IMG/VR virus record: IMGVR_UViG_3300020045_007300
Span: 30,893 to 94,892 of that record
DNA length: 64,000 nt
Origin: a virus
Direction: 5' to 3' (one strand)
Part shown: in pieces, positions 21,825 through 43,674 of the stretch
Position numbering within the stretch: position 1 is the stretch's first letter
Layout of the letters: the number at the start of each line of letters is the position of its first letter
Notes under the pieces: model-generated
Databases searched by the model: none
What the model saw: only the letters and a program-made list of their open reading frames with translations
Told to the model about the DNA's origin: nothing
Program-made: the position numbers and the translations under genes

Positions 21825-21840
21825 GTTTTCATCGATTTAG

Positions 21841-23704: not shown

Positions 23705-23705
23705 A

Positions 23706-23936
23706 ATGAACGATTTGCTGTATGAAAAAGCAATGCAAGGAATGATACTACGGTCTTTCACCACTAAAGAAATAGTTGATTTTATGCGTAGCAAAGGATT
23801 TTACGCTGACATTGATAAAAAATGCGGGTTTGGAAGGATTTTTATAACATTTCACCATGAAGATGCCTTGATAAAAGATGTTGTACTTACTGTGGATTGG
23901 TATCGTGGAGGTATGATGTTGAGTCGCTTAAATTAA
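23706..23936 (+). CDS. Hypothetical protein (probable start 23706)
   Basis: AGGA SD before ATG. Confidence 0.55.
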   Translation: MNDLLYEKAMQGMILRSFTTKEIVDFMRSKGFYADIDKKCGFGRIFITFHHEDALIKDVVLTVDWYRGGMMLSRLN

Positions 23937-23978
23937 ATAATTCTTGAGCTTTACTAGAAATTCTGTATAATTGTTCAT

Positions 23979-24634
23979 AGGGTTTTCAGTATTTGTCTTG
24001 GGAAAGGCGTAAATACTGAAAACCCCGCAATAAAACGAATGCTTTGCAGCCTTTCCCATCTGGTAAAGCATTCGGAACAATAAAACCGTTTTGTGACACC
24101 TCTAGCAAAACGGATAACCTTTAAGAACCCGCGTTTGCTATTTTAGTAAACGCGGGTTTTTTTTAATGTCTAAAATTTGCCACCTAAGACGTGGTAATCA
24201 TAAAACCCCAAAAATGTACGAGACACACAGTGTAAGCCTAGACATGGGGCAGATTCTCAGAGTGCCATGCAACGCTAAATTGGATTAGCGACAAGACGGA
24301 TGAAGACATGGAAAAGCCTATGTGTGGCGGCAATACACAGAACATCAAGACTAATCGGGGAAGTATGAAATAGCCAACCCAGAGGGGTAACCACCCTCAC
24401 ACACGACATAATAGTGAACTGCCATAGGAGTATGGCACATAGAGTTATCGAGCTGAACTCACGCACTGCATTTGCGAAATACAGCTAGTCGGTTAATAGG
24501 TTTAGTTTGATTAGTCCATGTGAGTTGAATGGGTTATGTATTCTCTTGTCACTGTGTAACCATGCAGTAGTTTGTACAAGAGTTCACATACGGCTTAATT
24601 GATTACTATTGTCTAAATTTAAAGGTGGGTTAAA
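23979..24634 (+). ncRNA. Long structured non-coding leader/RNA copy 1 (kissing hairpins, terminator, conserved core)
   Basis: TATAAT at about 23966; loops tgggaaaggc / gcctttccca; homologous to 42246-42840 on the minus strand. Confidence 0.6.
24126..24164 (+). terminator. Intrinsic terminator/attenuator
   Basis: acccgcgtttgcta/tagtaaacgcgggt hairpin followed by a T-run. Confidence 0.85.
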
Positions 24635-26334
24635 ATGGAAAGAAGTTTAACAAGAATATCAAAACCTTTTGGAAAGGTAATTTTGGGTATTGATATGCAC
24701 GATTTTTTAGAAGTAGCCGCTATTTACGAGATAATAAAAGTAGGCGATGAATTAGTTCTAACTAAAATTGGCAGTACATCAATTCATGAACCTAAGCCAA
24801 TTGGCTCATTACATGGATATTCTATTCAGGAATTGGCTTTAGATGGCCGATACTTATTTACTGATGATGAATTAAAATGACCATACAAAATGAATTTATC
24901 GTTGCTGAATTGGATTTCACTCATGTTTTACGCAACCAATGCGTTCAAGAGCAAGGTATTATCACTTGCATACAAACTGGCAATAAAGGCTATTTTTGGT
25001 TAGAAGCGGGTAAATTTCCTTCTCGCCAAGACCTAGCGATTGTAAGCAATAAAAGAACTATTAAATTATCATGAATTAGGCGTGGATTGAAATGGTCTTA
25101 CTAGCAAAGAAGCATGACCTTTACCTAAAAAAATTAGGGGAAGCGATAAAAGAAAACATGAGTCTTATTATTGAGCTGCAAAAAACAGGCTCATTGTCAC
25201 CAGAATCTATTTTATGTAAAAACAAAATAGACGACAATTTAAAAAAATATAAAGAAAAGTGTTTTTCAGTGTCACCAGTTAAGGAAATTGATTTTTGCCG
25301 AAAACAATACTTAGCAGGTCAGTACAATAAAAGATTCATTGTGTCAGTAAGTGGGATTTATTTCAATATCTGGAGAAAAACAGGGAATGGCTTTTTTTTA
25401 CTGCCGATACAATACCCAAGAGACATATTTGTTGATAATATGTACTCGAACACATATCTGCTAGATATTTCATTTATGAAGGATGGGCGTTATTATGATG
25501 TTCATGGAAACGAGGATTTTGAGTGTTTTATTGATGATTCTTTCAAAGAAAACAGGAAGACGTTAGGAGGAATGCAGAAGGCACTGAACATTGAATTAGA
25601 TGGAATACCTACTATTTTAGGGTTTAACAACCAATTTCAGGTTTATAACCATCATTAAATGGCAAACAATTAATCAGTCAGTAATTGAAATTACACAAAG
25701 ACAAATTGAGTTTAACTGTGACCGATAAAATAATCAACTTCCCAGCATCAACCAGCCTAAATGTTGACCAAGCCTTAGCTAGTGCAGCGCAACTGAATAT
25801 GACCGATGTGCTGATTATTGGCTACGTCGGAAATGGTCTGTTGAAAATTAGAAGTTCAAAGATGGATAGAAAAAACGCCTTATGGCTTATTGAATCAGCA
25901 AAGAGAGAGATATTTAGTGATGAATAGATGTAAAGATTGCAATTACTTTGACGTGGACGGATTAACCAAGGCTATGTCAATAAGTGATAAGGGATTATGC
26001 GTACTTATTTCAACAAGCGAATATGGCTTAAAAAGCCTAGATTCAAATATAGCTGAATCAGTTTGTGTAAATGAAGGTATTGGTGGTGAATTAATTGTTT
26101 CTCCTGATTTTGGCTGTGTAGAGTGGACAAACAATGTTTGAATTATCATTTGACGCTACCCGATGCGTGGCGAAACAACCATGTGAACTTAAGCAATACT
26201 GCGCCAGATTTACATCAAAATGGCAACCAGAAGGACATCAAGGTTGTGTTGATGCTAGTAAGCTGTTAATTGACGGTAAAGACTGCGCGATGTTTGTTTC
26301 AAATAAGAATGAAGACCATGGTAACTACAAATGA
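24635..26334 (+). other. Run of small hypothetical early genes (24635-24880, 24877-25074, 25092-25658, ~25685-25927, ~25920-26141, 26134-26334)
   Basis: Overlapping start/stop junctions; no assignable motifs. Confidence 0.6.
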
Positions 26335-26425
26335 TAACTTCTACTTTTCGCACCGCCGTAGGGCTGTTCATGATGATTGTTTTACTGGGGTATTTAATGA
26401 TGATAGAACTTAGGCATAAAAAATA

Positions 26426-27094
26426 ATGACAACTGAAATTCAAAAGAAAATCACCGCATACAGAGTAGTTGATAAAAACGCAGAAGAACTGCCTGTTATT
26501 GCCGCAAATGAACTGCCTGAAATGATGCACGAAGGCTTATCACGCCCTGAAATACTCAAGGGTTCATCATACAAGATTAAAACGCCGCAGTCAGAACACG
26601 CACTGTATGTCACTATCAATGATATGGTGTTAAACGAAGGTACGGATAATGAAGAATTGCACCCTTATGAGATTTTCGTGAACTCAAAAAACATGGAAAA
26701 CTTTCAGTGGATAGTGGCATTAACACGGGTCACATCGGCTGTGTTTCGTAAAGGTGGCGATGTTGGCTTTTTGGTCGATGAATTAAAAGCGGTATTCGAT
26801 CCACAAGGCGGCTACTGGAAGAAAGGCGGTGTGTTTATGCCTTCTTTAGTAGCAGAGATAGGCTGCACCATTGAAACGCATTTAAAGTCCACTGGTCGCA
26901 TTAAAGTAGTGGTTGATGCTCATCAACAAGCGTTTATTTCAGCCAAGCGCAAAGAGTTTAATGAACGCGAAAGTGAGGAGTCTACTGGGTTTCCTGCTAA
27001 TGCGACAATGTGTAAGTCATGTTCAACAAAAGCGGTTATTTTAATGGATGGATGTGAAGTTTGCTTGTCGTGCGGCTCGTCTAAATGCAATTAG
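26426..27094 (+). CDS. nrdJb: NrdJb / TSCPD-domain protein (class II ribonucleotide reductase C-terminal subunit)
   Basis: RPEILKG.SYKIKTP, ALYVTIND, PYEIF.NSKNME.FQW..ALTR, VFDP.GGYW and C-terminal Zn ribbon CLSCGSSKC. Confidence 0.88.
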   Translation: MTTEIQKKITAYRVVDKNAEELPVIAANELPEMMHEGLSRPEILKGSSYKIKTPQSEHALYVTINDMVLNEGTDNEELHPYEIFVNSKNMENFQWIVALTRVTSAVFRKGGDVGFLVDELKAVFDPQGGYWKKGGVFMPSLVAEIGCTIETHLKSTGRIKVVVDAHQQAFISAKRKEFNERESEESTGFPANATMCKSCSTKAVILMDGCEVCLSCGSSKCN

Positions 27095-27290
27095 TTCTTA
27101 TTTAGGGAAAGAAAATGAACCACGCAGAACTATTAAGCTACTTACTCAGTGGTAAAACACTGATAAACAGAATATGCAAGACCATTAAAATAGAAAATGG
27201 TGTTTTAATGGAAGCCTCCCCGACGGGCGAACACTGGAAAGTTGACGACCTTAATCTTAACGATGATTGGAAATTACACGAGGAACAATA

Positions 27291-27638
27291 GTGCACGGAT
27301 TAACAACGCAATACGACAAACAGCTATCCATTGCCTTAGATTATGACGAAACTTTCACTGCTAATCGTGAGCTTTGGACTGGATTTATTGCCTTAGCAAA
27401 AAGCATGAATTGCAAGATTACGTTTGTTACGTTTAGAATGCAAAATGCGCATAATATGGATATTATTTATGATGCTCAGAAATTAGGATTAAATGTAATT
27501 TTTAGTAATGGAAAGCCTAAATCAAGCATATTTACCGCTGATATTTGGATAGATGATAGCCCTGTAACTATTCCTAGTTACGATGCAATGACCGAATTAC
27601 TTAACAATGTTTATGAGGAAACACAATGCCAAAAATAA
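27291..27638 (+). CDS. HAD-superfamily phosphatase-like protein
   Basis: IALDYDET motif I, VT.R motif II, DIWIDD motif IV. Confidence 0.75.
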   Translation: MHGLTTQYDKQLSIALDYDETFTANRELWTGFIALAKSMNCKITFVTFRMQNAHNMDIIYDAQKLGLNVIFSNGKPKSSIFTADIWIDDSPVTIPSYDAMTELLNNVYEETQCQK

Positions 27639-28171
27639 CAATCAAATACGAACATTCGCATGAATTAACTGATTTATTGGGTAAGTTAGCGCAAATTTAT
27701 GTTGTGCCAGAAGCTACTTGTGGTGTTGATGTTCCATATCCAGAAAATTATAATCAGGGTGATTCGGAATCTGTATTAGAAGCTAAGTTAAAAGGTATTG
27801 AAGCTACGACTAAATACCGCGATGTTCTTAATCAAATACATAATTTAATTATTGAGAGAGGCTTGCTAAAAGATGTCTCATTTGAGGATGGTATTAAGGA
27901 TTTTCCATTACTGATTAGCTGTATTTTCAGGGAAAATAGGGAAATGAGGAACTCGCTTAGACAATTGGGAGTTCCTATTTATACAAAAGACAATACCGCA
28001 TTTATTGCCGACACTGACAATCAATTATTCACACTCGAAGAAGCGGCTGAATACTTGGAGATTAACAAATTCAATGTTTTTAGTCTTATGAATGATGGTG
28101 ATTTGAAGTGCCAAGGTTTTTTATTATCAGACTTGCGAAAAGTAAAGAAAAGTTGGGAGGATAGTGTATAA
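27626..28171 (+). CDS. Hypothetical protein with C-terminal excisionase-like HTH
   Basis: LFTLEEAAEYLEI...V..L...G.L. Confidence 0.65.
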   Translation: MPKITIKYEHSHELTDLLGKLAQIYVVPEATCGVDVPYPENYNQGDSESVLEAKLKGIEATTKYRDVLNQIHNLIIERGLLKDVSFEDGIKDFPLLISCIFRENREMRNSLRQLGVPIYTKDNTAFIADTDNQLFTLEEAAEYLEINKFNVFSLMNDGDLKCQGFLLSDLRKVKKSWEDSV

Positions 28172-28269
28172 TCGCTACTTAGTTCATTACTTGTTGCTGG
28201 TTAATTTGGAGGTTGATATGTAACACGTTACCGCTTAAGTAAATCAAATTACTGCATTAGTAAATAAGA

Positions 28270-28310
28270 AACCTGTTAGTTTTGTGGATATTACTAACGG
28301 GTTTTTTATT
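28270..28310 (+). terminator. Intrinsic terminator
   Basis: acctgttagt/actaacgggt stem plus T-run. Confidence 0.75.
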
Positions 28311-28383
28311 GCCCATAAAAACGTGATACAATACCTGAACACTGTTTAATTACAACCACGCTGTGAAGCGCAAGGACATCACA

Positions 28384-30135
28384 ATGGCTACTATCGCCCC
28401 AAAACCAAATAAACCAACTATCGGCATGGTGCGCGGAGCTGGTACGCAAACTTCCGATAGCATTGACGCTAAATTATCAACTGGTGAATCCGTGCTTAAC
28501 GCAGGAGCTACCAAAGCACTCAAGGCGTTGCTTAAGAAAACAGGTGGCATGACCATTGATGAATTTAACGAACTTCACGCACCGAAAGACGCAGAAACTA
28601 AGGTAGTTGATGGTGTTCTTCATGCGGCACTTGGGGTAGACTTGGGCGCACAATCGAGGATAGATGAATTAACAGGGGTTGCAAAAAAGACAATGCCAAG
28701 TGCGATGCAATCCGCAAAAGCATTTGAACAAATGCCGCCAACTAGAGCCGCTACCGCCGCCGATGTTAATTTTGGTAATGGAATTAAACCAACTACCGCG
28801 CCAACAATCGGAACTCCATCGGCAACACTGGTAAACGACACTACTATTCCCGTTCCGAAAACTGGGTTTTTAAAAGGTGTTGCAAATAACCTAGGTGGCT
28901 CTATGTCGCTTGGAACTGGACTGGCTAGTGAGTACGCACCTAAAGTTTTTGATGCTGGAGTTCAGCAAGCAATGCAGTCTGGTGGATTATCAAAAGATGC
29001 TCCAAGTAGATTATTTGGAGGGAATCAGGTTAGCGACAATGGAGTTACAAATACCGTTGATATTGCAAGTTTAAGAACCCCAGAAACACAAGCTAAGATT
29101 GATGCCATGCCTAAAGCTCCAATAGCATCAATTGCCCCACCAACAGCCGTAACCGCACCAGATGCAACGGCGAAAGTAGCTCCTCAAGTTGGAGCGAATG
29201 ATGGAATTGTAGCTAATTCGTTTAACACTGCAAAGGCTACTAGGGATGTAATTACCCCTGATAGATTAGCTCCTGTAGCAACTATGGCAAGTAACACACA
29301 AGCCCCTTCTCAAGAAGAAGTTAAGCCTGTTATGGTCGGTCAAGACCTTACTGGCAGAGGGATTACTAAAAGTGAAGGTGTTGGCAAGAATGGCTCTACA
29401 TTGTACTCAGATGGTGGGATGGCTAATTTAGCCACCGCTCCGCAAGTTGGAGCGCAACCACAAAAAAGATTATCAGAGGAGCAAGTTAGACAACTATACC
29501 GTGAATTACCCGCAGATTCATTTAGTGCGGCTGGTATGGGTGGAACAACAACACAGCAGCGTTATGACAAACAACAATTACCTGAAAATAGATTAAATCT
29601 TGCGCCACAAGTTGACCCGAACGCACAACGTAACGCACTAATCGCGCAAACCAAGCAATCTGGAAACATTGGCGATAAGGCTATTCGTGATTCAGCAAAC
29701 GCGCAATTAGCCGCACTGGATGCTAACGCCAGAAGCGACCAAGATAATAAATATAAAATGGCTTCATTAGGTCAAAACGCCAGCCAGTTTGAACAGCAAC
29801 AACAAGTGGCTATGGCTACGGCTAAGAATGAAGCCAATAAGTACGCCAACGAACAAGCATTAAAAGAAAAAGAGTTTTCCCTAAAAAGCGAGGGTGGAAC
29901 TACTGCTATTGAAAAAGAAGACGGAACAACGGAATATCGGACAACAGGACGTGCTGGAGAAAGAAAAGCGTATGTCAATGAAGCAATGACGGGGTTAGAA
30001 ACCAACCCTGAATATCTTGGTGGTGTTAATAAATTAATGAAAGAACGTGGCATGAGTCAGGTAGAAGCCGAGGCAGCAGCTAAAGACGCTTATAGACGAC
30101 ACCACTTAGAGATATTTAATAAAGGTGGTAAGTAA
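28384..30135 (+). CDS. Internal virion / DNA-ejection protein (probable start 28384)
   Basis: GG-like VRGAGTQTSDSIDAKLSTGESVL motif; A/P/Q-rich; Cys-free; coupled to giant A. Confidence 0.8.
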   Translation: MATIAPKPNKPTIGMVRGAGTQTSDSIDAKLSTGESVLNAGATKALKALLKKTGGMTIDEFNELHAPKDAETKVVDGVLHAALGVDLGAQSRIDELTGVAKKTMPSAMQSAKAFEQMPPTRAATAADVNFGNGIKPTTAPTIGTPSATLVNDTTIPVPKTGFLKGVANNLGGSMSLGTGLASEYAPKVFDAGVQQAMQSGGLSKDAPSRLFGGNQVSDNGVTNTVDIASLRTPETQAKIDAMPKAPIASIAPPTAVTAPDATAKVAPQVGANDGIVANSFNTAKATRDVITPDRLAPVATMASNTQAPSQEEVKPVMVGQDLTGRGITKSEGVGKNGSTLYSDGGMANLATAPQVGAQPQKRLSEEQVRQLYRELPADSFSAAGMGGTTTQQRYDKQQLPENRLNLAPQVDPNAQRNALIAQTKQSGNIGDKAIRDSANAQLAALDANARSDQDNKYKMASLGQNASQFEQQQQVAMATAKNEANKYANEQALKEKEFSLKSEGGTTAIEKEDGTTEYRTTGRAGERKAYVNEAMTGLETNPEYLGGVNKLMKERGMSQVEAEAAAKDAYRRHHLEIFNKGGK

Positions 30136-33100
30136 TGAGTTCTTTTAATGATTTTCTCGACAAACAATATGCGGAAAAACCAGAGGCGGCAAGCACCACT
30201 AAGGTAAAGTCATTTAATGATTTCCTAGATGAGCAGTACAAGGGAGTAGAGCCAGAAAAACCAAAAGCCAGCGGTGGCGTAGTAGCCGATATAGGGAAAG
30301 CCATAGTTCGCGGCGTGGCGAAAGCCCCCGATGCAATAGCAGGGTTAGCGCATACTGCTTTATCAGATAGTGCCATAGTAGGTGATGCAGCACTGGGCAA
30401 CATGGATTCTTCCAGAATATCACCAGCACAAGCAGCTATTGATTATGGCTTAGGAACGGCAAGGGATAATACCACCCGTGCGTTTGCCGATAAAGTAGCA
30501 AAGGAGTTGCCGTATTCACAAGAAACACTGGATGCTTCTGACAGGCAGCAATCCGATAAAGCCGAGCGACTAAAGCAGATTGACATTGATACGCCTAAAA
30601 TTAAGTCTGATGGCTTAATTCAAGATTTAAACGCTAACAATGCGTGGCGTACTGCCAAGCAAATAGGCGCGGGGGCAATTGCTGGATTAAGCGAACCACG
30701 CAGCTTAATCCCCAGTGTTATTGAATCAATTCCTGAATTTGTCGCATTAGCGGCAGGTTCAAAAGGTGCGGGCATTGCTAAGGGCGCAGGTGGATTGGGC
30801 GATGCTTCTGTATTGGCAGAAAAGGCTAGGTTGGCGGGGGCTGGTGAATCGGTATCTGCTAAAGAAATGGCTAAACACACTGCGAAAGTAGATGGTTTGG
30901 CTACAAAATTAGATAATGCAAAATTAGCAGGTGATACCGCGCTTGAAGCGGATATTAGCGCAAGAATAAGGAAAGCTAACGAATGGACAGCTAAAAAAGA
31001 ACTAGCTAATAATGCAGAAAAAGCAGCTACCAGACAAGATTTAGCGATTGCTGGGTTAGGTAACTTTACCCTTGAGGGGCAAGGTGCGTCCGATAGCGCA
31101 AGACAACAGTTTAATAACTTACCCGATGATGAATTAAGAAAAAATCCTGAGTTCGTTAATTTAGAAAATCAATACGGTTTTGAGCAAGCCAAAAAGATTG
31201 CCAGTGAAGCAACGGGTAATAAAGCCTATGCACCAGCGGCGGCACTTGGTTCTGTAGCATCACTTGGAACAGGTGGCGGCTTAGAAGGTGCGTTAATGCG
31301 TGGTTTCAAAGACACTGCCAAAGACGGAATTGTTAAAGCAGGTCTAAAAGGCGGATTTAAAGAGGGTTCAGAGGAATTTATTCAAGGCGGATCAGGTCAA
31401 TTTGCAGAGAACACAGCATTAAACCCTTACACTGGCGTTGACTCAATGGAAGGCGTAGCGGCTGCCGCAGGTGAAGGCGCAGCTATGGGATTCTTGACAG
31501 GCGGCGGCGGAAGTGTCGTGGGTGCAGCTTATGATAAATATGCTCAGTCTAAAGCGCAGGCTGATATTTTAAAAAAACAGGCATTATCTCAAACTGGATT
31601 ATCAGCAGCAGCTACGCAAGGACAAGCAGCATCAGCTCAAGCTGATGCTGATACACACCTAGCTAATGCACAAGGCTTGCAAGACGGCACAATAGCACCT
31701 GTTCAACCTGAACCAGTAGCCGAAGCTCCAAGTGCATTACCAAAAATAACACCTGACGTACACACGCATATTAGTAATGTACTGGATAGTTCATATCAAG
31801 ATTATGTGAAAAAAGGCGACAAGGCGGCACTTAATAAAGGAGCAATTCAATCGGCAGCAAATGATTTGGGTGTTAGTTACGATCCATCAAAGGAATCAAC
31901 AGCCGATATTTTAGTAAAATCCAGAAAAGCACTGCAAAACTACAATATTGCCAATATCGACCCTGTAGCAATTGAACACGCACAAGATACAATTTCCAAG
32001 ATTAACGAAAAATCAGCGCAAGGATTGCCACCGACTAATGTAGATAACTACAATCTATCCATTGCCGCTGAGAAATTAGGTACAAAACCAGATTTAAACG
32101 CACTCCAATCAACCATTGATAAGCACCTTGAACTAAATGCAAAACCAGCACCAGAAAACCCTGTTAGCCCTACAGCAACAAATCCACTCGCAGACGGAAG
32201 CACTGAGTCGAGCTTACAGCCAGATTCAAATGCTGGAGTTACAAGTGAAGCAAAGCCAGCACCAGTTGGAAAAGCTGATACTGCAAAGCCAATCACGCCA
32301 AAATGGATAGAAAGGCAAGCGGATTCTGATGTTATTAAAAATCCAAATAATTTTGGAAACTTGTCGTTTAAAACCACGAAAGAAGCAAATGATTTTATTG
32401 CTACACACGGATTAAAAAATCATTCACCAGCTAAAGATGGTTATGGCGGTTATGAAATTCACAGTAAAAAGTTTGCCGAAGCCAATAAGCAAAAGCAAGA
32501 CGCTGATATTCCAGACGCATTGAAGCCAAGCGGTGAATATCACTCAGCGATACCTTCATTGCTTAATGATTTGGAAAAAGGTGGCGGAATTGTTGTTGAT
32601 AGTAATAATCGCCGCAGTCAATCTGTTAATCCAACTTGGTTTAAAGATGGATTTATTCTTGATGGGAACACAACGCCTGAAAAAGTTACAACCATTACGG
32701 ACGCTATCCAAAAGTACGCCGACATTAAGGATGGAAAAAGAAAGGATGATTTAACAGGAAAAGACCATCGTATCCTGCAAAAACTTACCGATATTCTTAC
32801 AGAAGATGAACGCGCAAACAGTGTTGAATCCGAAGACATCCGCAGCGATGAAGTTAAATCAGCTCATAAATTTATTGATGAATATGAAAATGGCGATTAC
32901 GATCAAGAGCAATCAATAGGTCAAGACCTGTTGCATGCAAGAGCGACAGATAATAAAATCAATCCAGAAGATTATCGTAATTCTACTGGAATTTATGATA
33001 ACTCAGAGATTTACAAAGAACTTAAACGTAAAACAGGCTACAACACAAACAATGCAACAGATACACAACCTAATACAGCACAACCTGAATCACCGCGAAC

Positions 33101-36100: not shown

Positions 36101-37283
36101 TGCCAAGTATGTTGATGATTTAATCAATAAAGCCAAGGATGAAATTAAGGCTGAAAAATATAATTACATCGAATTCGATGGAATTAAACCAATCGAAAAA
36201 CCAATATGGGAAATGACAAAAAGCGAGTTCCAAAAAGCTGTTACTTTAAAAGACGAACCAAATCAAAATCTTCCTAACCGCAAAAACGCTTATATTAATG
36301 GTAAATATATTGCCCAAGGGAATTTTACTAAAAACTGGTGGCTAGATGGACATACAGAGGACGATGCAAAAGAAGTTATCCATCGCAACACAATTAATGG
36401 AGTTTTGTCAGATGGAATAAAAATACCAGAAAACGTATTAAATGAATATCCAGAGTTAAAAAGCAAATATTCTTTATACAGCAATAAACCTGCGTCCACC
36501 GAAAGCGAGGTAATTAAAACCAAAGCACCACGCACTAAAAAACAAATCGAACACGCTGAAAACGTATTAGACGAATCAGGAGTAACAGGTGATTTATTCG
36601 CCTTTGCCGAAAGTGTGATAATTCCTGTAACCAATAGCAGCATGGTTTCACCAGAAGCATTACACAAAACACCAGTCGACGAATTAACAGAATCGGAAGC
36701 CGAAACCTATTTTGATAACTTAGCGGCTGATATTATTATCCAAGCCGAAGCAGAAGGAATACCCGATGTTGACACCAAAGAAGAAGCACGAATTATTGAA
36801 ACTCTGGCAGAAAATGTACCCGCTGGAGCGATCGCCAAAGCAAGAAGCCAGAACGCCGCACAGAAGCCAACGCGCACATTAACAACCGTAGACGGCGAAT
36901 CAATACCCGTTTATGAAAATGATGATGGAATGTGGCAATCGGTAGCCAAAAACGAAGACGGTTATTATCAGAAATTTCCAAAGGATGACGACCAAATTGA
37001 CAGCGTTAAGGCGATTAGTGAAGACACCAACACAATCACCATAGACGGAAAAGAAATCGCAGTAGCGGATGTTTTTAAACGGCTAAAGGGTAAGTCGGTT
37101 GAACGTAACCAAATTACCGAGCTACTTAACAATCATCCTGATAAACAGATGGTAGCGCGAATAATGGCAATCAATGAAGGAGTGGGCACAAAGAACCGTA
37201 CAGAACTACCGATACTTGAGGCACTTGTTAAACTTGGACGACATAGCAAAGAAAATACGCGCGGTTTCTCTATGGATTGTTAA
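30135..37283 (+). CDS. Giant internal virion / ejection protein A (2382 aa)
   Basis: Gly/Ala-rich membrane-type N-terminal region with EG.EE..Q motif; single Cys is the last residue. Confidence 0.85.
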   Translation: MSSFNDFLDKQYAEKPEAASTTKVKSFNDFLDEQYKGVEPEKPKASGGVVADIGKAIVRGVAKAPDAIAGLAHTALSDSAIVGDAALGNMDSSRISPAQAAIDYGLGTARDNTTRAFADKVAKELPYSQETLDASDRQQSDKAERLKQIDIDTPKIKSDGLIQDLNANNAWRTAKQIGAGAIAGLSEPRSLIPSVIESIPEFVALAAGSKGAGIAKGAGGLGDASVLAEKARLAGAGESVSAKEMAKHTAKVDGLATKLDNAKLAGDTALEADISARIRKANEWTAKKELANNAEKAATRQDLAIAGLGNFTLEGQGASDSARQQFNNLPDDELRKNPEFVNLENQYGFEQAKKIASEATGNKAYAPAAALGSVASLGTGGGLEGALMRGFKDTAKDGIVKAGLKGGFKEGSEEFIQGGSGQFAENTALNPYTGVDSMEGVAAAAGEGAAMGFLTGGGGSVVGAAYDKYAQSKAQADILKKQALSQTGLSAAATQGQAASAQADADTHLANAQGLQDGTIAPVQPEPVAEAPSALPKITPDVHTHISNVLDSSYQDYVKKGDKAALNKGAIQSAANDLGVSYDPSKESTADILVKSRKALQNYNIANIDPVAIEHAQDTISKINEKSAQGLPPTNVDNYNLSIAAEKLGTKPDLNALQSTIDKHLELNAKPAPENPVSPTATNPLADGSTESSLQPDSNAGVTSEAKPAPVGKADTAKPITPKWIERQADSDVIKNPNNFGNLSFKTTKEANDFIATHGLKNHSPAKDGYGGYEIHSKKFAEANKQKQDADIPDALKPSGEYHSAIPSLLNDLEKGGGIVVDSNNRRSQSVNPTWFKDGFILDGNTTPEKVTTITDAIQKYADIKDGKRKDDLTGKDHRILQKLTDILTEDERANSVESEDIRSDEVKSAHKFIDEYENGDYDQEQSIGQDLLHARATDNKINPEDYRNSTGIYDNSEIYKELKRKTGYNTNNATDTQPNTAQPESPRTSENTADSGNVGTQEKQTVSDDTINQPTNKAQNGEGTDTTTQTTKKKVDEATAQYSKPDEETTAAQDGVVQTAESGSDASTQSSKTTAEIKQNAVSPDNVEQPEGIDTLTDELKQYLVDKGIFTAQKRNGKWTALIASPDLPKFLTDHQINSLIQQVKQDVSPDKTANKVFNELGFDSNKIKAINTLSNALAVTSEDRIRNEHLIKQSIIELQAMRDNGDISEDEFNTLTSDAFESNQVITKELQAAISAINNDAKNAGLGDWVKKGKSDYIVHVQPLDSTRKRLKSEASSEIKGLSAKELSDKIKSSSQNIGLIERTMEQLKKLFHKLFSLSKNISNENTFEPIKWLSDDGKTMFTVQKAPKTFLFFSDEQLASPDKIAQANELKANIKALKSDDLKVSKTSANVSGKLDGATFDFDDSLLGNNPYLKTINRVVNHEDKRVPLKGFNDVSPDNIPDFISANDTEIRLLESALSNAKKGISDQKNITPKIARQGATATIKLLMAHKKSGEGEAITHHYRGLELTIYSDNGADYLKVGESTAFEININELTKVSALTPKIDVRIDSLAKKDFAGELNSISQQIAEVKQTKRELAQILANSGFKQYKTDQAKKAQESRWISQQAKHGKPEPDAGVTPEVKPKKPSGEWSLFEDDFNKKQNAINLIHSEQWANRRKSLGLDKLKYGYKVVEDDNGKFSILSKPINLLTAQDKSDITKDFNYVSEDIKPKKQAQQPDRNSVDQFIEIKNLNPMRKGLLTKQLNNPTSIKDDIKPLYLHIENMIFNGEKTRTREENVIKDMSRRTYNNATQEQQDLHEKRQKEAGTRTVYVVGGYDLGKTAYDYADYLIKQKDLVQQSEVFTNNEQVEIVNTPADKPVKPTNNGTDKVSSSEVMKQIDADIDDILGDIGRHLMGKMGKSIVPTEADTELMMLVAKLMRLVFQKGYLTFKEAAGFVMQKMRENLGDESANMLSIKDLQASYIQANGKDFAGMAEYTDKTVSDLEADYAKYVDDLINKAKDEIKAEKYNYIEFDGIKPIEKPIWEMTKSEFQKAVTLKDEPNQNLPNRKNAYINGKYIAQGNFTKNWWLDGHTEDDAKEVIHRNTINGVLSDGIKIPENVLNEYPELKSKYSLYSNKPASTESEVIKTKAPRTKKQIEHAENVLDESGVTGDLFAFAESVIIPVTNSSMVSPEALHKTPVDELTESEAETYFDNLAADIIIQAEAEGIPDVDTKEEARIIETLAENVPAGAIAKARSQNAAQKPTRTLTTVDGESIPVYENDDGMWQSVAKNEDGYYQKFPKDDDQIDSVKAISEDTNTITIDGKEIAVADVFKRLKGKSVERNQITELLNNHPDKQMVARIMAINEGVGTKNRTELPILEALVKLGRHSKENTRGFSMDC

Positions 37284-37314
37284 TTAATTAAACGCCGTTT
37301 AATGGTATAATTAA

Positions 37315-37399
37315 GTGTGGCTAGGTTATCGAGACCGAAAACGTAATCCAGTACGACTGCCACACACCTATCTGGAATAATTTAACTTGGATTTAAATA
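37315..37399 (+). promoter_or_regulatory. Family A structured leader copy 3 (TATAAT at 37306)
   Basis: gtgtgg/ccacac stem; loop aatccag complementary to ctgga and tggatt. Confidence 0.65.
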
Positions 37400-38044
37400 A
37401 TGAAAACTCTAATTGAAACACTTAACAACCCTACCGAAGATGGACTTTATTCACTTAAAGCATTAGCCAAAGCAAGCGGAAAATGGGATATAAAAAAGCC
37501 AAGCCAGTTTTTAAGACTGCAATCTACAATTGATGAAATTAAATTTTTGTCAAGTGAAGAATTTGCACCACGGGCAATAATGCGGTCTGAGCGGTATAAT
37601 ACATCAGGAGGTGACACGTTTGTTTGCCGTGATTTAGTCTATTCTTATGCTCAATGGATAAGTCCTGCATTTAAGTTCTTGGTAATTAGAACTTTTGACC
37701 AGTTAGCAAACGCCACCACTTCGCAAGAAGTCATTGACTTAAAGTTCAAGCTCGATAACGCACTTCAACAAGACCTATTCACAAAAGCACAACAACCACG
37801 CGACAAAAACTGCTTACAGGTTTTAATGAATGTTTCGCCATTTCAAGTTGAACATTTCTTTACCGAACTTGAAAGTATCGGCGAGGTGAAAAGTAGATTA
37901 GTTCCACAACCACCAAAACGGATATTTGAAGCGACAGCGGAATCAAAATACATCATTGGTAAAAAAGGCGATACACTGTTATTTGATGAATCGGTTTCTG
38001 AATTATTCCCTGCTCAACAAGATTGGACGGAATGTCAGACATAG
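37400..38044 (+). CDS. KilA-N domain protein
   Basis: YSL..L.KASG...KPSQFLRLQST...GDTFVCRDLVYSYAQWISPAF...VIRTFD. Confidence 0.9.
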   Translation: MKTLIETLNNPTEDGLYSLKALAKASGKWDIKKPSQFLRLQSTIDEIKFLSSEEFAPRAIMRSERYNTSGGDTFVCRDLVYSYAQWISPAFKFLVIRTFDQLANATTSQEVIDLKFKLDNALQQDLFTKAQQPRDKNCLQVLMNVSPFQVEHFFTELESIGEVKSRLVPQPPKRIFEATAESKYIIGKKGDTLLFDESVSELFPAQQDWTECQT

Positions 38045-38149
38045 AGTTTTTACTATCGCGCAAACCAGACGCCGATGAAAATGAGATTGAACGCTACCTT
38101 GAACGGGTAGCTATCATGATTGAGTGTGGTGGGATTAATGAGGATAGGG

Positions 38150-39329
38150 CTAGATTGATGGCTTTGTGATGGTTGTTTTTACCTTGCTATTACACTTAGT
38201 AGGCGATCCATTGGTATTGTTGATAAGTGATATTAATCTAATGCCGCCATCAATTTTCTTCTGCATATCCTCATCAATAACAATCGGCTTTATTGTCGGG
38301 AATAGAACCGTGGGGAAACCTTCGCCAGTAGCTCTAAATATTTCATTTTCGACTATAAGTTTTTTATTCCACATTATTTTTAATTCTTCTGTTATCATTT
38401 TAATTCCCCTTGTTATGGTTTTGTGACGCTACTGCGTTGTGCAATAGCATCAGCATGAAACTTATGCTTTTTCATTAAATTTGATTCACGGTTCATTGCC
38501 GTTAATGAGTTACCAAATACCATATTGGCTATTCTGTTGGCAATATCACTTTTTATTTTGCCAACGGTGTTTTCTGAAAGAAAGCCTGAACTTAACTCAT
38601 ATTGAGATAATTCGTTTTCTATCACTACCTCTTTCCCGTTAATAATAACAAGCGTCCGACATCCTACGTTATAGGTTAGCTGGTCAATGTACGCATAAGA
38701 TTTACAGTCTATCAGCGTATCTTCAATACCTTCCATCAATACAATGCCATCCATTACTGATTTAAGCGCGTCTTGTCTTTGTTCAAGCAACGACAACTTG
38801 TTTTCGGTACTGATAAGTTCGTTTAGTTTTTTGGATATGTCCATGTTAATTCCTGTTTCTATTAAGATTGTACGCCACAATGCTTTGTTTCTTCGCCATA
38901 AGTATAGTCTTTAAATTCAGCAAGCAGCCTGTTAATAACCCCAGCGACTTCCCTGTCTTTTAGCATTGATTGTAACACGGTTACAAGTTCTATTTTATTG
39001 GAGCATATTTTTTTATTATTAAGAAGATTGAATTGAATACTGCATGGATAGCCGCCATCAAATCTAATAAACGCAATATTATGTTTTTGCGTATTAATTA
39101 TGCTATTGCCACGACTTCCGCAAGATTGTACAGATAATGGATATGTTTTCGTGTGAAAACCCTGATTTTCTAATCTAACAACAATCTTGCTATCCGTTGC
39201 ACTAGAAATGCTTTTTATCAGGTCATCAATAACTGATTTAATCTCTTTAACTTGGCTATCAAGCGAACCCGCTTTCTCTTGACCCTCAAAGAAGTATTTT
39301 GTGAAATCTGTCATTTTAAATTCCTGCAT
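38150..39329 (-). other. Three hypothetical minus-strand genes (38150-38398, 38413-~38844, 38862-~39314)
   Basis: SD-preceded ORFs in a minus-strand operon. Confidence 0.6.
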
Positions 39330-39382
39330 TGATTATGTGTAAATAGGCAACTTGCGATATTACAAGTTTCCATATTGGTTGA

Positions 39383-39622
39383 TTAAAATTCCATGCTTTC
39401 AACTAATGCTAACTGCCTTTTTAATGAGCCAATTTTCTTTTTCTTCATCTTTTCAGCATGAGCAATGGCTAACTCTTTTTTCTCATGCCAGTCGTCGCCG
39501 TGTAAATCCATATTGTCGGTATAAACATAATTTGGATTGTCCGATTCACTAACATCCTATTGAAAAATACCTTTCGTAAAAAGATATTTTGTTACCCATA
39601 CTTTTTTAGTTTTTGTAGTCAT
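39383..39622 (-). pseudogene. Disrupted small phage gene
   Basis: KVWVTKY.. / TKGIFQ*..GDDWHEKKELAIAHAEKM / IGSLKRQL..MEF can be joined only across two frameshifts and a TAG. Confidence 0.5.
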
Positions 39623-39810
39623 TTCTAAATTCCAATAAAAAGCCACACTCCTTAAAAATACGTTCGCGTGGCAGAAATTACCCGTATTTAAAAAATGTAG
39701 CTTTGTTATATTTCTGATGGTGACGCGAATCACAGGTTCACTATATCAAACAAACCATCACAACGCAATGTGTTATAATCACATAAACACAGTTTAATTA
39801 AGGAACATCC

Positions 39811-40287
39811 ATGCTAATCTCAAAAACATCACTAGCTATTATAAATGAAGCAATCCAAGCCGAACTGGACGCTTTCTACCTGTACAATCACCTTGCCAAC
39901 CAAACACAGCGTTTAGGATTATTCGGCGCATCATCCTACTTTCACAAAGAAAGTGTCGGTGAAATGAGTCATTACCAGCTTCACGCCGACTTTCTGAATG
40001 ATCGCGGCACAGTGGCAGAATTACCCACTATTGAAGAAATTACCGACGGTGTAGGCGGTTTAATGGACGCACTAAAAACCGCGCTACAGGCTGAAATGGA
40101 CTTGGGCGATAAGTACGCCAATTGGTACGGTGAAACAGCGATTAAAGACCCGATGACAGGACAGCATTTACTACAGTTTATTGAAATTCAGCGCAAGTCT
40201 ATTGGTGAATACGGGGATTGGATTCAACGGTTGACTATGGCGAATGGTGCAGTTATTTTGATTGACCAAGAGCTAGGTAATAAATAA
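39811..40287 (+). CDS. ftnA: Ferritin (non-haem, FtnA-like)
   Basis: 158 aa; INEAIQAELDAFYLY, GASSYF.KES.GE..H...FLNDRG, LQAE, LQFIEIQ ferroxidase pattern. Confidence 0.88.
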   Translation: MLISKTSLAIINEAIQAELDAFYLYNHLANQTQRLGLFGASSYFHKESVGEMSHYQLHADFLNDRGTVAELPTIEEITDGVGGLMDALKTALQAEMDLGDKYANWYGETAIKDPMTGQHLLQFIEIQRKSIGEYGDWIQRLTMANGAVILIDQELGNK

Positions 40288-40468
40288 TGCTATTAATTAA
40301 ATACATCATCCTTTTATTTTTAATAACCGTGTGTAATTATCTTATTATTGGTACACATGATATAAGATCCATCATACTTGGAATTATTATTATCGGCATT
40401 TTATCTGAAAGAGCGTGTGCATTCTTTGTAAGAAAAATTACGACTAAAGTACATTTGTAAGTAAAAGA

Positions 40469-40497
40469 AAAGCCACTGCTTAGGTGGCTTTTTTGTT
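40469..40497. terminator. Bidirectional intrinsic terminator
   Basis: aaagccac/gtggcttt with A- and T-runs between convergent units. Confidence 0.8.
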
Positions 40498-40498
40498 T

Positions 40499-40879
40499 CT
40501 ACGCTTCGAGTAAAATACGTTCTCTTTCTTTAATGGAATGATGTAATTGCATTTGTAGGCGTTTTATTTCAACCAGTTCAGGCGAGAAGTCTGCGTATGT
40601 AATTTTATGACATCTACACACTTTAAATTGTGATAGCAATCTCTTCACCATGTGATTTGCAAAAATATTTTTTTTCCTGCTTTTGTTGTTAATAGTAAGC
40701 CTTGAGCTTTTATTATTCTTATTCCATTTACGCGCCCTATTTCTTGCGCACTCTTTATTTTTTTGCAAAGAATTAAATTTATCGCGTGATTTCTTAGCGC
40801 ATATCTTGCACGCTCTACTTTTCTCATACCGATCAGTAGAACCGCATTTCTTACAAGGCTTCACCGTCAATGTAGTCAT
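40499..40879 (-). CDS. Basic Zn-ribbon phage protein
   Basis: KPCKKCG...CKIC; C-terminal PELVEIKRLQMQL. Confidence 0.65.
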   Translation of the reverse strand: MTTLTVKPCKKCGSTDRYEKSRACKICAKKSRDKFNSLQKNKECARNRARKWNKNNKSSRLTINNKSRKKNIFANHMVKRLLSQFKVCRCHKITYADFSPELVEIKRLQMQLHHSIKERERILLEA

Positions 40880-41069
40880 GTTCAATAACCTTTTGCGCAT
40901 TATCTGGAGTCGCTTTAGTCGCAGCAATTTCAACTAACCACGAATTAATCACCCCGTTAGCCAAGTTGCTCACTACCTTAGCCTGATTGATTGACACTGT
41001 GCCATTTTGTACGCCTTCAATTTCAGCTAAAAGCCGTTCGCGTAATGCTGTCATATCAGGGATATTCAT
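40851..41069 (-). CDS. Small phage protein
   Basis: LRERL...G.V....AK...NLA..VINS motif; coupled to neighbours. Confidence 0.65.
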   Translation of the reverse strand: MNIPDMTALRERLLAEIEGVQNGTVSINQAKVVSNLANGVINSWLVEIAATKATPDNAQKVIEHDYIDGEAL

Positions 41070-41503
41070 ACTTTAATCTCTCTAAATTCTTCGACATCCG
41101 CAATTCTACCCGCGGCATAAGCCTTGTCTTTGGCAGTAACCACACTGGCAATACTACCATCAAGGTTTACTCTGTTTTCGCTGTCAATAACACCTTTGTG
41201 ATAGGACGGTCTTGAGGTGTACCAATAAATAGCATTTCTTATCCGCTTTCTTGAAAAACCTGTTTCAGCATCGAATAATTGCTTATGGATGCCGTAAGCC
41301 AATGGTAATTTGTCTTCTTTTGCACCAAAAAACGCAAGAGGGAATAGTTTTTTTAGTTTTCTGATAGTTCCAGCGTTAGTGACTTTTTTTGCCTTGGCAG
41401 GTGATTCAATAACGGGTATCACTTCCACAGTTTTAACTACTGGAGGAATAACCACTTTTGGTTTCAGTGATAAAATCGGTCTGTTGCTGTTTGGTGTTGT
41501 CAT
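41066..41503 (-). CDS. proQ: ProQ/FinO-domain RNA chaperone (probable start 41503)
   Basis: LFPLAF...PLAYGIHKQL....SRKRIRNAI.WYTSRPSY......RVNLDG....V; SD AGGAA. Confidence 0.88.
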   Translation of the reverse strand: MTTPNSNRPILSLKPKVVIPPVVKTVEVIPVIESPAKAKKVTNAGTIRKLKKLFPLAFFGAKEDKLPLAYGIHKQLFDAETGFSRKRIRNAIYWYTSRPSYHKGVIDSENRVNLDGSIASVVTAKDKAYAAGRIADVEEFREIKV

Positions 41504-41543
41504 TTTGTAATTCCTAGGTTGATGGTTGTTTTTTTGTGAGTGA

Positions 41544-42245
41544 TTATCTAAAATCGGTATCATCCCAAGCCCCTTTCCCGATATTGCAGTCGGAGCAAAG
41601 GACTTGCAGGTTATCAAGGCATAATTCAAGCTCTGGATAACGTGAACGTGGTTTAATATGGTCAACGTGAATTTGCACCCCATTACCTGCTTTAGCCCCG
41701 CAACACTGACACAATACACCATTGTTTTTTAATGCAAGATAGCGCAGTTGTTTCCATGCAGTTGAATTATAAAAATCCTTGTATTCGGTCTTGCCAAGTA
41801 ATGGGTGTGAGTATTTAGGTAGGTTTGTTTTAGGAGCAACAGTCTTTACAATTAAGGATTCTGGATGTCTAAAGCTATAACTTGTTGTGCTTTTTTTGTA
41901 CGGAGCTATGCCAAAGATTAGTGGTTTTTCGCTAAGATATTTCGATATAGCATCTTTTGGAGTCAATCCACTCCATCCAAAATGACAAATTAACTTTTCA
42001 CCAACAGCTTTTTTACCTACATTACCAGCCATTCCTAACTTGTGTGCCAGCTTACACAAAGACCCGTTAGTAATCTTTTTTATAGTCCTAATACTTCCCA
42101 AGTCACCAGTAAAAACCCATTTCATTATTGGTTGAAAATCAGGCTGGCAATTAATAAACCAAATACCATTTTTCTTATCTTTTTTACAACCCAATTCTAT
42201 TGCTTGTTGCAATTCACAATCTGGTATTTTTAGCCATATTTTCAT
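41544..42245 (-). CDS. HNH endonuclease
   Basis: FYNS.AW..LRY..L, CQCCG, HVDHIKP...LDNLQVLC.DCNIGK. Confidence 0.92.
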   Translation of the reverse strand: MKIWLKIPDCELQQAIELGCKKDKKNGIWFINCQPDFQPIMKWVFTGDLGSIRTIKKITNGSLCKLAHKLGMAGNVGKKAVGEKLICHFGWSGLTPKDAISKYLSEKPLIFGIAPYKKSTTSYSFRHPESLIVKTVAPKTNLPKYSHPLLGKTEYKDFYNSTAWKQLRYLALKNNGVLCQCCGAKAGNGVQIHVDHIKPRSRYPELELCLDNLQVLCSDCNIGKGAWDDTDFR

Positions 42246-42840
42246 AATTACTTCCTATTCTGTTAACTAAGTAAAGCAGAAATATACTTTCCCTATTAGC
42301 CTGTTGGTATATCCAAGCAAGAACTCCCCCTACCCCAAACACTAGATAAGTGATGGTTAGTTTTGGCTTAGTTATTACTGAAAACTACCTGTTAAATTCC
42401 AAGTCGGATTCCCGAACCATGAGCTTAGTATAGAGTGCTTTCCCCTCTATATCCCCTCGACCCTCATGTCAACCAGTCGGATGGATTCTTAACGATTTGC
42501 ACGCGGTGACATGATTAAAATGCCCCTTACCATCTAAATCACTCAGAAGCACAATTATGAGTGCCTTATTTCCTTTTCCGCCATACTCTTTTCATTATGG
42601 ATGTGCATAGCTTCCTGATAATCTGCCCCATGCAAAGGCTTAAACTAAAGTGTATCGGACTGCACATAGGTTATTTATGGCTAAATAGCAGACATAAAAA
42701 AACCCGCATACTGAGTTCAGCAAGCGGGTTTCAAAATTTATACGCTGTGCTGAAATCTAGCGGGACTTTCACAACGGTTTATTTTAACTGGTTACTTCTC
42801 TATTTATTGTCCCGCTAAGAACAAATAGAGAAGTAACCAC
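42246..42840 (-). ncRNA. Long structured non-coding leader/RNA copy 2
   Basis: TTGAAA/TATAAT promoter; loops tagcgggac / gtcccgcta; terminator 42696-42731; core homologous to 24216-24271. Confidence 0.6.
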
Positions 42841-42925: not shown

Positions 42926-43507
42926 CTATAACCCTTTAAGATGACTCTCATATTGCGCCGTTCCAGAAAAGTTAATCGTCTTAAACCACTCTATTTTTTC
43001 ATCATCACTCATTCTAACTGAGTGCGGCATGGATATTTCATGAGAGACAATGTTATACCCATTTATAAGTCTTGATAAATCACATGGTAATTCTGAGTAA
43101 AGAAAATCAACGTCATCTATGTTCACGGAAAATTTACCACTAAGAAAGTCAATTATAGTCATAATCCGTTGTTTACCATCAATCACTTCATACTTAAAAA
43201 AGTGAGGTAATTCAGTTAGTCCTTCTTGTTGAAATTTCTTCCATTCCTCATTTGTGAATGGACAAGTATTTCGGAGGATAGATACACTGCCTATGCTAAT
43301 TCCCTTTAGTATTGAGTAAATAAGCTCTTGTTTTTGATGGTGCGACCAAATAAAATTACGTTGCAGGTTTTTTCCTCGTGATGGTAAAAAGACATTAAAG
43401 TCAATTTCATTTTTCAATGAATAACCTAAAAAATCCAGTGTACTTTCCTTGTAATCGGATAGGCGATTAAGTAATTCTCTGTGCGAGAATATTTCTGATG
43501 CTTTCAT
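42926..43507 (-). CDS. DUF262 (ParB/GmrS-like) domain protein
   Basis: LQRNFIWS, LIYSILKGI.IG, EVIDGKQR..TI, F..IN.SG. Confidence 0.88.
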   Translation of the reverse strand: MKASEIFSHRELLNRLSDYKESTLDFLGYSLKNEIDFNVFLPSRGKNLQRNFIWSHHQKQELIYSILKGISIGSVSILRNTCPFTNEEWKKFQQEGLTELPHFFKYEVIDGKQRIMTIIDFLSGKFSVNIDDVDFLYSELPCDLSRLINGYNIVSHEISMPHSVRMSDDEKIEWFKTINFSGTAQYESHLKGL

Positions 43508-43597: not shown

Positions 43598-43674
43598 TGT
43601 TATTGTAACACACAAAACCATGTTACAATAAACCCATAAACCCAAACTATCGCCGCAAGGTGAAAGGAATACTC

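Follow-up and report, generated by a model that had tools for sequence, protein, structure and literature searches.

We suggest that two loci heading two gene blocks of a freshwater phage are cis-acting leaders, which would govern the passage of RNA polymerase through their own terminator and would also yield a small RNA, in the manner of HK022 put, lambda PR'-tR' or P4 CI/IsrK, and that a constrained non-coding module forms the tail behind one of the terminators. This reading, drawn from sequence and folding, has in our estimate about an even chance of being right. The window analyzed is a 64,000-nt stretch of the IMG/VR virus record IMGVR_UViG_3300020045_007300 (positions 30,893 to 94,892), and each gene block is headed by one promoter-leader-terminator unit. 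Both loci have a sigma70-type promoter, a multi-hairpin RNA, an intrinsic terminator and then about 450 ORF-poor nt (Table 1). The single layout given in the preliminary description holds for the promoter, the kissing loops, the terminator and the ORF-poor tail, but not for the hairpins before the terminator, which number three in copy 1 and two in copy 2.

Table 1. Positions of the features of the two loci and of associated genes (window coordinates).
Feature	Position	Strand	Basis or remark
Copy 1 promoter, TTGAGC-16-TATAAT	23944-23971	+	sigma70 consensus matches 10/12; predicted start ~23978
Copy 1 hairpin 1, loop L1 at 23996-24010	23980-24025	+	folding, loop-duplex energy
Copy 1 hairpin 2, loop L2 at 24048-24062, 10-nt complement of L1	24036-24074	+	folding, loop-duplex energy
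Copy 1 hairpin 3, 3' arm a candidate antiterminator	24086-24113	+	folding, alternative-pairing energy
Copy 1 intrinsic terminator, 18-pair stem and eight T	24123-24165 (stem 24123-24161)	+	sequence, folding
Copy 1 tail, non-coding module	24165-24609	+	~99% conserved in relatives outside the cassette
Copy 1 core/cassette	24213-24272	+	shared with copy 2; sequence comparison with relatives
RBS and start codon of the first gene (81 aa, 24635-24880)	24622-24637	+	sequence
Copy 2 promoter, TTGAAA-16-TATAAT	42874-42847	-	sigma70 consensus matches 11/12; predicted start ~42840
Copy 2 hairpin 1, loop L1 at 42820-42808	42789-42839	-	folding, loop-duplex energy
Copy 2 hairpin 2, loop 42769-42753 complementary to L1	42743-42776	-	folding, loop-duplex energy
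Copy 2 intrinsic terminator, stem 42728-42703 and seven T	42693-42732	-	sequence, folding
Copy 2 core	42604-42660	-	alignment to copy 1
Copy 2 tail beyond core	42246-42603	-	ORF-poor; dissimilar to copy 1 tail
FinO/ProQ-domain protein gene, second gene of copy 2 block	41066-41722	-	PF04352, E = 1.6e-20, 73.5 bits vs cut-off 27

The leader RNA is 145-185 nt long, multi-hairpin and very stable at both loci: the first 193 nt of copy 1 fold at -78 kcal/mol (z = -8.8 against shuffles) and the first 150 nt of copy 2 at -58.7 kcal/mol (z = -9.8). In each copy the loops of the first two hairpins can pair over 10 bp, with energies of -19.3 kcal/mol in copy 1 (shuffle mean -7.7) and -18.9 kcal/mol in copy 2 (shuffle mean -5.4). 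No more than 0.06% of the trials with shuffled loops equalled the observed energy, and a shuffled genome is expected to contain 0.1 loop-loop matches of 10 nt. Loops of different copies cross-pair at only about -7 kcal/mol. When the loop pairs are aligned by reading on their common TCTT prefix, 7/9 pairs are changed on both sides between the copies; this covariation is based on two paralogues and on two shorter leaders, in which the matches, of 7-8 nt, are each no better than background. The earlier claim of kissing loops with differing letters and preserved pairing is upheld. The kissing hairpin of copy 2, which adjoins the terminator, aligns by sequence with the third, non-kissing hairpin of copy 1; the kissing hairpin of copy 1 does not adjoin the terminator, and one mechanism must suit both layouts. 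The three indels listed for the leader of the X1 relative avoid the stems, by reading: one is in a spacer, one in a loop and one in the T run.

The two shorter promoter-proximal leaders lie in the same genome and precede Ant-like genes; in both, the first-hairpin loop is complementary to an unpaired patch of the leader's own terminator hairpin. Downstream of a third early promoter (genome 17388, minus strand) there are likewise a structured RNA, two terminators and a long spacer.

The promoters and terminators described earlier were confirmed at both loci. Metagenomic relatives retain the -10 region of copy 1, as seen in the loose ends of record 1 (X1) and record 8 (X3); in the loose end of the X2 relative both arms of the terminator stem read as shortened. 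No further sigma70-like promoter with at least 10/12 matches was detected in either tail. The terminator sits between the sole recognizable promoter and the first gene, which supports the attenuation/antitermination reading. The terminator 5' arm is predicted to pair alternatively with the 3' arm of hairpin 3 in copy 1 (-11.1 kcal/mol, p = 0.013 against shuffles) and with the 3' arm of hairpin 2 in copy 2 (-15.6 kcal/mol, p = 0.002), so that the mutually exclusive pairing of a classical attenuator is predicted in both copies, although it might merely reflect similar hairpin and terminator arms, as after duplication. An attenuation or antitermination leader, one of the two functions proposed before, is the best reading of the loci; the large structured RNA family to which it had been attached is not supported. 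The region of the first-gene RBS and start codon also pairs weakly, at long range, with 24168-24201 (-24.2 vs -18.9 +/- 2.4 kcal/mol, p = 0.037).

By sequence, host RNA polymerase is expected to start at the near-consensus promoter and to make at first an RNA of 145-185 nt with two or three long hairpins, in which the 5' hairpin loop pairs over 10 bp with the downstream hairpin loop, giving a compact fold directly before the strong terminator. We propose that the downstream block would be expressed only by polymerases that pass the terminator, and that the kissing fold would decide this passage. It may act as an attenuator, locking a hairpin whose 3' arm would otherwise form the antiterminator, or in the way of HK022 put, the folded nascent RNA rendering the polymerase terminator-resistant. 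Terminated transcripts would accumulate as a stable small RNA, and the FinO-domain protein of the copy 2 block is its candidate partner; the two features expected of a FinO-dependent sRNA, a gene for such a protein and a transcript ending in a terminator hairpin plus U tail, are both predicted here. The different loop letters probably keep the two leaders from pairing with each other. The search for an antiterminator protein was negative: neither of the Q families PF03589 and PF06530 came up in six frames of the 89%-complete record.

Past the terminators the copies share the core noted previously (24217-24271 vs 42660-42604; 79% identity over 43 nt, 24229-24271 in copy 1), which is the longest inverted repeat in the window (local score 42 vs 15.2 +/- 2.3 in shuffles). 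Significant similarity is confined to this core of ~57 nt, the promoter/UP region matching weakly; neither the tails beyond it (score 23 vs 19.3 +/- 2.4 in shuffles) nor the hairpin regions (19 vs 15.3 +/- 2.5) could be aligned, and the loci are not the two homologous elements of ~600-650 nt that had been described. The second proposed motif, agaggggWaaScacYct, is at chance level (by estimate, ~0.6 matches of 14/17 expected between two 450-nt stretches) and occupies different hairpins in the two copies, and the reported G-tract of copy 2 consists of just two G runs. In relatives from X1, X2 and X3 the segment 24213-24272 is swapped for an unrelated 60-mer. Both cassette versions hold, by reading, a 5-bp inverted repeat at the same place, ~15-17 bp apart. 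The folding z of the core is ~0 on both strands, i.e., it is conserved as sequence and not as structure. We propose that the core is an exchangeable cassette, most likely a recognition site for a phage-specific factor on DNA or RNA.

The same data can be read differently: the promoter-to-terminator units would be stand-alone genes of trans-acting small RNAs, perhaps acting with the FinO-domain protein, while the downstream genes would be transcribed from an unrecognized promoter in the tail, the core being that promoter or the site of its regulator. We regard this as unlikely. The strong terminators at both loci agree with it, as do the FinO-domain gene within the copy 2 block and a core which is kept as sequence, carries the inverted repeat, is present at both loci and is swapped in relatives, as expected of a phage-specific recognition site. 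However, the tails have no sigma70-like promoter with at least 10/12 matches, and by eye the core is not a sigma54 promoter and matches a T7-type promoter weakly. Neither an RNA polymerase nor a sigma factor of the phage was identified, and for the loop sequences the remainder of the genome has no more targets longer than 10 nt than chance would give.

The copy 1 tail was compared with relatives on contigs that come from four metagenome studies of freshwater or wastewater. In these relatives it occupies the same position and follows a homologous terminator. The upstream leader and the downstream DNA diverge (81-90% identity or unalignable), also within single contigs (upstream in X2 record 7 and X3 record 9, downstream in X1 record 3 and X3 record 15), and the neighboring genes drift by 10-16%. 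Conservation breaks off sharply at both ends of the tail, at a 14-nt imperfect direct repeat (24164-24177 and 24607-24620), which alone is near chance for a 480-nt region (estimate). The tail is near-invariant in relatives and is therefore functional in some way, not as had been proposed; it appears to be a strongly constrained non-coding module, but the near-identity could instead mean recent spread. Rather doubtfully, we also suggest that the ~445-nt tail may be a new phage non-coding element, in which a near-invariant scaffold would carry an exchangeable specificity cassette of ~60 nt, matching between both operon leaders of one genome and different between related phages, read by a phage-specific factor that would coordinate or insulate the two gene blocks.

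Recent spread would apply if the tails were non-coding insertions between terminator and first gene, either mobile or recombination-spread modules or decayed genes, whose near-identity does not reflect function. The abrupt conservation ends coinciding with the direct repeat, the divergence on either side within single contigs and the HNH endonuclease gene that follows copy 2 speak for such insertions. We consider them improbable: the tail keeps its place in relatives and the repeat is near chance, no terminal inverted repeats were seen by eye, blastn of the tails against TnpB element ends gave no similarity, and the record holds no integrase or resolvase. Two exact 27-29-mers from the tail are absent from species-representative bacterial genomes, and the 27-mer of the two has no match in IMG/VR. 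The cassette shows 1-nt insertions and deletions at scattered places, which speaks against the coding remnant considered previously.

Still a little less probable is that each ~600-nt stretch forms a single large structured RNA of one family, as first proposed. The ~99% conservation of the copy 1 tail between diverging flanks and some long-range complementarities within this tail are compatible with it. The two tails are, however, unalignable outside the core and fold no better than shuffles (z = -1.9 for copy 1 and +1.25 for copy 2; a further z-score is -1.4), and the Rfam search recommended earlier gave no matching family for leaders or tails. Eight variant positions were seen in relatives, of which four lie outside predicted pairs, two retain their pair as a wobble and two disrupt it, and the strong terminator parts the hairpins from the tail. 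In our preferred reading the ~450-nt tails are long 5' untranslated regions, not one RNA family.

An RNA-primed, R-loop-forming origin of the ColE1 RNA II or T4 ori type, the other function proposed, is very improbable: it shares with the loci only the surface layout of a promoter, 5' stem-loops and ~550 non-coding nt, and is not needed because the genome holds, outside the window, an O-like replication initiator gene (genome 21469-22494) with iteron-like repeats inside it (21828-21914), while the tails have neither iterons nor an AT-rich unwinding block. The ColE1-type origin was rejected as a candidate, since it has an uninterrupted primer and an opposite-strand antisense RNA, and here a strong terminator ~150-185 nt past the predicted start would cut off any primer RNA and the opposite strand has no promoter from which an RNA I-like antisense RNA could be made.

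Phages without N- or Q-type proteins still must pass the terminators before early or accessory genes. If the termination-control reading is true, the phage would have a compact orthogonal control device, a gate made of RNA alone that works through a loop-loop contact and uses private letters in each operon. This kissing-loop leader design, without an Rfam model, appears to be uncatalogued. The cassette, if it is a recognition site, would mark an unknown phage-specific regulator, and it poses a second puzzle, being swapped between phages yet common to two loci of one genome.

Class C group II introns, which begin with GUGYG and contain a domain V, insert after terminators; such an intron was rejected here, with no group II model match at E <=10 and a tail beginning with AAUGUCU. 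FinO-family proteins bind terminator hairpins and accelerate pairing begun at kissing loops (PMC9977716). As in FinP/traJ-FinO and Inc/repZ-FopA, the phage would have terminator-ended structured RNAs with kissing loops and a FinO-domain gene nearby, the encoded protein being a possible partner of the terminated RNAs; unlike those systems, which use an opposite-strand antisense RNA, both loops are on one sense transcript. In P4 CI (seqB with seqA/seqC), P1/P7 c4 and Gifsy-1 IsrK, complementary pairs within a transcript control termination or translation and set specificity (PMC4825925). The leaders here resemble them in having complementary pairs within a phage operon leader, as a 10-bp loop-loop match in both copies, and, for c4 and IsrK, in the two shorter leaders preceding anti-repressor-like genes, but the pairing is between hairpin loops in cis. 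The Rfam C4 model gave no match at its gathering score anywhere in the genome, window included, and none at E <=10 when run on the two leaders and on one of the Ant leaders.

The lambda-type PR'-tR' unit makes a short RNA (6S RNA or StxS), and its downstream genes need read-through (PMC7547250). It has in common with the present loci a strong promoter, an intrinsic terminator within ~150-200 nt and a short stable RNA as the predicted default product; in contrast, the search for a Q-family gene was negative here, another 450 nt separate the terminator from the first gene, and PR'-tR' is not described as having kissing loops. The put RNA of HK022 binds the beta-prime zinc-binding domain of RNA polymerase and suppresses termination in cis. 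The putL and putR elements are ~70 nt long, with bulged stems and a triplex, and need no dedicated antiterminator protein (PMC9378689). The leaders here differ in their long perfect stems and 10-bp loop-loop helix and in having 95-135 nt before the terminator vs ~70 nt; like putL and putR, they are predicted to be two RNA elements just 3' of two promoters and upstream of terminators, with stem-loops that contact each other.

At both loci, copy 1 and copy 2, we detected a near-consensus sigma70 promoter followed by a leader of promoter-proximal hairpins and a terminator, each heading a gene block. The leaders fold well below shuffled sequences in energy (z = -8.8 for the first 193 nt of copy 1 and z = -9.8 for the first 150 nt of copy 2). 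In both copies the hairpin 1 loop pairs with that of a hairpin further downstream, with duplex energies of -19.3 (copy 1) and -18.9 kcal/mol (copy 2); shuffled loops average -7.7 and -5.4 kcal/mol, respectively. Cross-pairing of the loops between copies reaches about -7 kcal/mol, i.e. the copies do not cross-pair, and when the loops are aligned on the common TCTT prefix, 7 of the 9 pairs are changed on both sides. According to the hairpin scan of the whole genome and its shuffled versions, 0.1 10-nt loop-loop matches are expected per genome, so the kissing-loop observation stands. The common layout and the covarying kissing loops of the preliminary description were thereby largely confirmed. 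Loop or core sequence targets elsewhere in the genome were chance-level 8-11-mers only.

Coordinates of the leaders and other features (window coordinates unless marked genome, i.e. whole record)
Feature	Position	Strand	Description
Copy 1 leader	from ~23978	+	three hairpins before a terminator (stem of 18 pairs, eight T)
Copy 2 leader	from ~42840	-	two hairpins before a terminator (seven T)
Copy 1 tail	24165-24609	+	ORF-poor, between terminator and first gene
Core (cassette)	24213-24272; 42604-42660		common to copy 1 and copy 2
14-nt direct repeat	24164-24177; 24607-24620		imperfect
TnpB gene	21961-23088	+	IS605 OrfB / Cas12f-like, ~900 nt upstream of copy 1
FinO-domain gene	41066-41722	-	copy 2 block
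Loop-loop match, 10 nt	43500-43660		divergent intergenic region before GmrSD_N-like gene (hairpin scan)
43-nt direct repeat	52396-52438; 52590-52632		95% identical, spacing 194 nt, intergenic before tRNA-Pro gene
Polyvalent protein gene	59643-63998; genome 80-2248		giant; ART-PolyVal, LPD23, DUF3990 domains
13-bp box ACACTGTTTAATT	28339; 16949 (-); 39787; genome 30366; genome 3223		0-1 mismatch, intergenic, beside -10-like elements
Ant leaders	genome 3208-3090 (-); genome 20396-20495 (+)		short, promoter-proximal, each before Ant-like anti-repressor gene
Third consensus promoter and leader	genome 17388-16817	-	TTGACA-16-TATACT, outside window
O-like replication initiator	genome 21469-22494		outside window
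Tandem repeats, ~22 nt	genome 21828-21914		TTTTTGTCAAAT..., iteron-like, within O-like initiator gene

The two loci had been described as homologous elements, which overstates the relationship. Local alignment gave significant scores for the core (42 vs 15.2 +/- 2.3 in shuffles) and the promoter/UP region (24 vs 14.3 +/- 2.4), but not for the hairpin regions (19 vs 15.3 +/- 2.5) or the tails beyond the core (23 vs 19.3 +/- 2.4), and a second shared motif is at chance level by our own estimate. Judging from these alignments, copy 1 and copy 2 are homologous in part only.

The copy 1 tail was searched for relatives in several collections. A blastn comparison with 50,697 phage records gave no match for copy 1, the core pattern was not found in IMG/VR, and two exact 27-29-mers from the tail were absent from species-representative GTDB genomes, as was the 27-mer from IMG/VR; a single JGI metagenome match to the core pattern, located in the signal-peptide region of a receptor gene with high GC, was rejected as chance. 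Protein-anchored IMG/VR searches with three neighbouring genes as anchors detected no relatives. Portal relatives were short contigs or distant phages, five records of which have no similar DNA, and the 81-aa first gene after the tail has one relative (78%), on a 10,147-bp JGI contig. Every public run listed by word index as containing parts of the copy 1 stretch comes from water (fresh, drinking or waste water), and no RNA run is among those listed.

Contigs from four of the public metagenome runs (X1-X4) were aligned to 23700-25100, covering the copy 1 region only. Few differences were detected across 24165-24212 and 24273-24559 in X2 record 7 and X3 record 9, five across 24315-24609 in X1 record 3, and one across 24315-24541 in X4 record 16. 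Similarity is lost abruptly after 24609 in X1 and X3, and the 14-nt imperfect direct repeat coincides with the ends of this conserved island. Upstream, the terminator of the X2 and X3 records is too diverged for alignment at 80%; the loose end of the X2 contig, as we read it, contains a recognisable homologue of the terminator whose stem is shortened on both arms. In X1, the leader hairpins are ~89% identical (estimated from difference counts), the three listed insertions/deletions falling, by our reading, in a spacer, a loop and the T run, and the flanking genes show 84% and 90% identity. Eight tail positions vary among the relatives, without weight for or against the predicted pairs.

In X1, X2 and X3 the core is replaced by an unrelated 60-mer of equal length, and the replaced stretch is exactly the one common to copies 1 and 2. 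A version close to the window's own is present on another X1 contig. The core is thus a distinct cassette that can be exchanged. The divergent version, rebuilt from the differences listed for the relatives' contigs, has, by our reading, an inverted repeat of 5 bp whose halves lie about 15-17 bp from each other, in the same place as in the window's version. In the contigs compared, the cassette is common to two loci of this genome and different between orthologous loci of related phages. The near-invariant tail with a swappable cassette matching between the genome's two loci is the new part of the findings.

The proposal of a large structured RNA family was not supported: the predicted folds of the tails are no more stable than those of shuffled sequence (z = -1.9 for copy 1, +1.25 for copy 2), the core has z near 0 on both strands, and an Rfam search with a cut-off of E = 10, covering the two loci and one Ant leader, matched no known family in leader, tail or core, with tRNA-Pro as the only hit in the whole genome at gathering score. 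The RNA-primed origin proposed as an alternative was likewise not supported, given the O-like initiator with iteron-like repeats elsewhere in the genome, where the replication origin likely lies. Masking of the first-gene ribosome-binding site by the tail is weak in copy 1 (p = 0.037) and not significant in copy 2. A small peptide encoded across the core is unlikely; the two open frames (24 and 33 codons) both contain MGQI-[LI]-R but lack a ribosome-binding site, just two of the nine nucleotide differences between them are synonymous, and the relatives' cassette has no start codon and shows scattered 1-nt insertions/deletions. Also rejected were recoded stop codons (all three stop kinds occur in every frame but one, which has none within one 69-codon stretch), a diversity-generating retroelement (differences not adenine-specific), an integration attachment site (no integrase or resolvase found) and a promoter of the sigma54 or T7-like kind within the core (judged by eye, the matches are poor). 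For C-rich Rho-loading sites, the tails have G > C, as in the rest of the genome. The ends of the TnpB element show no similarity to either tail.

The IMG/VR virus record (94,892 bp, 39% G+C, rated 89% complete) encodes in the window, bases 30893-94892, a terminase, a portal with only 27-34% identity to cultured podoviruses, three giant virion or polyvalent proteins, TnpB and one tRNA-Pro. The 1706-aa giant protein has a weak match to an internal virion protein, and none of the giant proteins is recognisable as an RNA polymerase. The polyvalent gene seemingly spans the record ends, which would mean that the contig is circularly permuted. The early region outside the window is lambda-like, with two Ant-like genes and a leftward operon for exonuclease, Sak4-like protein, SSB and dUTPase. 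Behind the consensus promoter of this operon come a structured RNA rich in GGA, a long AT-rich hairpin, a tandem pair of intrinsic terminators and ~250 further ORF-free nt before the exonuclease gene, an overall layout like that of copies 1 and 2, with no sequence similarity. In both Ant leaders the terminator hairpin has an unpaired stretch that is complementary to the loop of the first hairpin (TTCGAGT or GTGGTGGA); taken alone, these matches of 7-8 nt do not rise above background. The region before the GmrSD_N-like gene has no clear layout match to the copy 1 and copy 2 leaders. The 13-bp late-promoter box ACACTGTTTAATT is absent from the copy 1 and copy 2 leaders and marks a promoter class distinct from theirs.

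Antitermination or attenuation, also put forward in the preliminary description, is the best supported role for the leaders. Downstream of the terminator we found no other good promoter ahead of the first gene at either locus, so expression of the blocks should require read-through of the terminator. The hairpin just before the terminator can pair alternatively, its 3' arm with the terminator 5' arm (p = 0.013 in copy 1, p = 0.002 in copy 2), which is classical attenuator logic. In a put-like version, the folded nascent RNA would make RNA polymerase terminator-resistant. The short RNAs of such terminated units can themselves act as regulators, as do StxS (PMC7547250), IsrK and P4 CI (PMC4825925). 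FinO family proteins bind terminator hairpins and promote pairing begun at kissing loops (PMC9977716), and the FinO-domain protein encoded in the copy 2 block may by analogy be linked to the leader RNAs. The layout of both leaders mirrors that of HK022 putL and putR, where the folded nascent RNA alone renders RNA polymerase resistant to terminators (PMC9378689).
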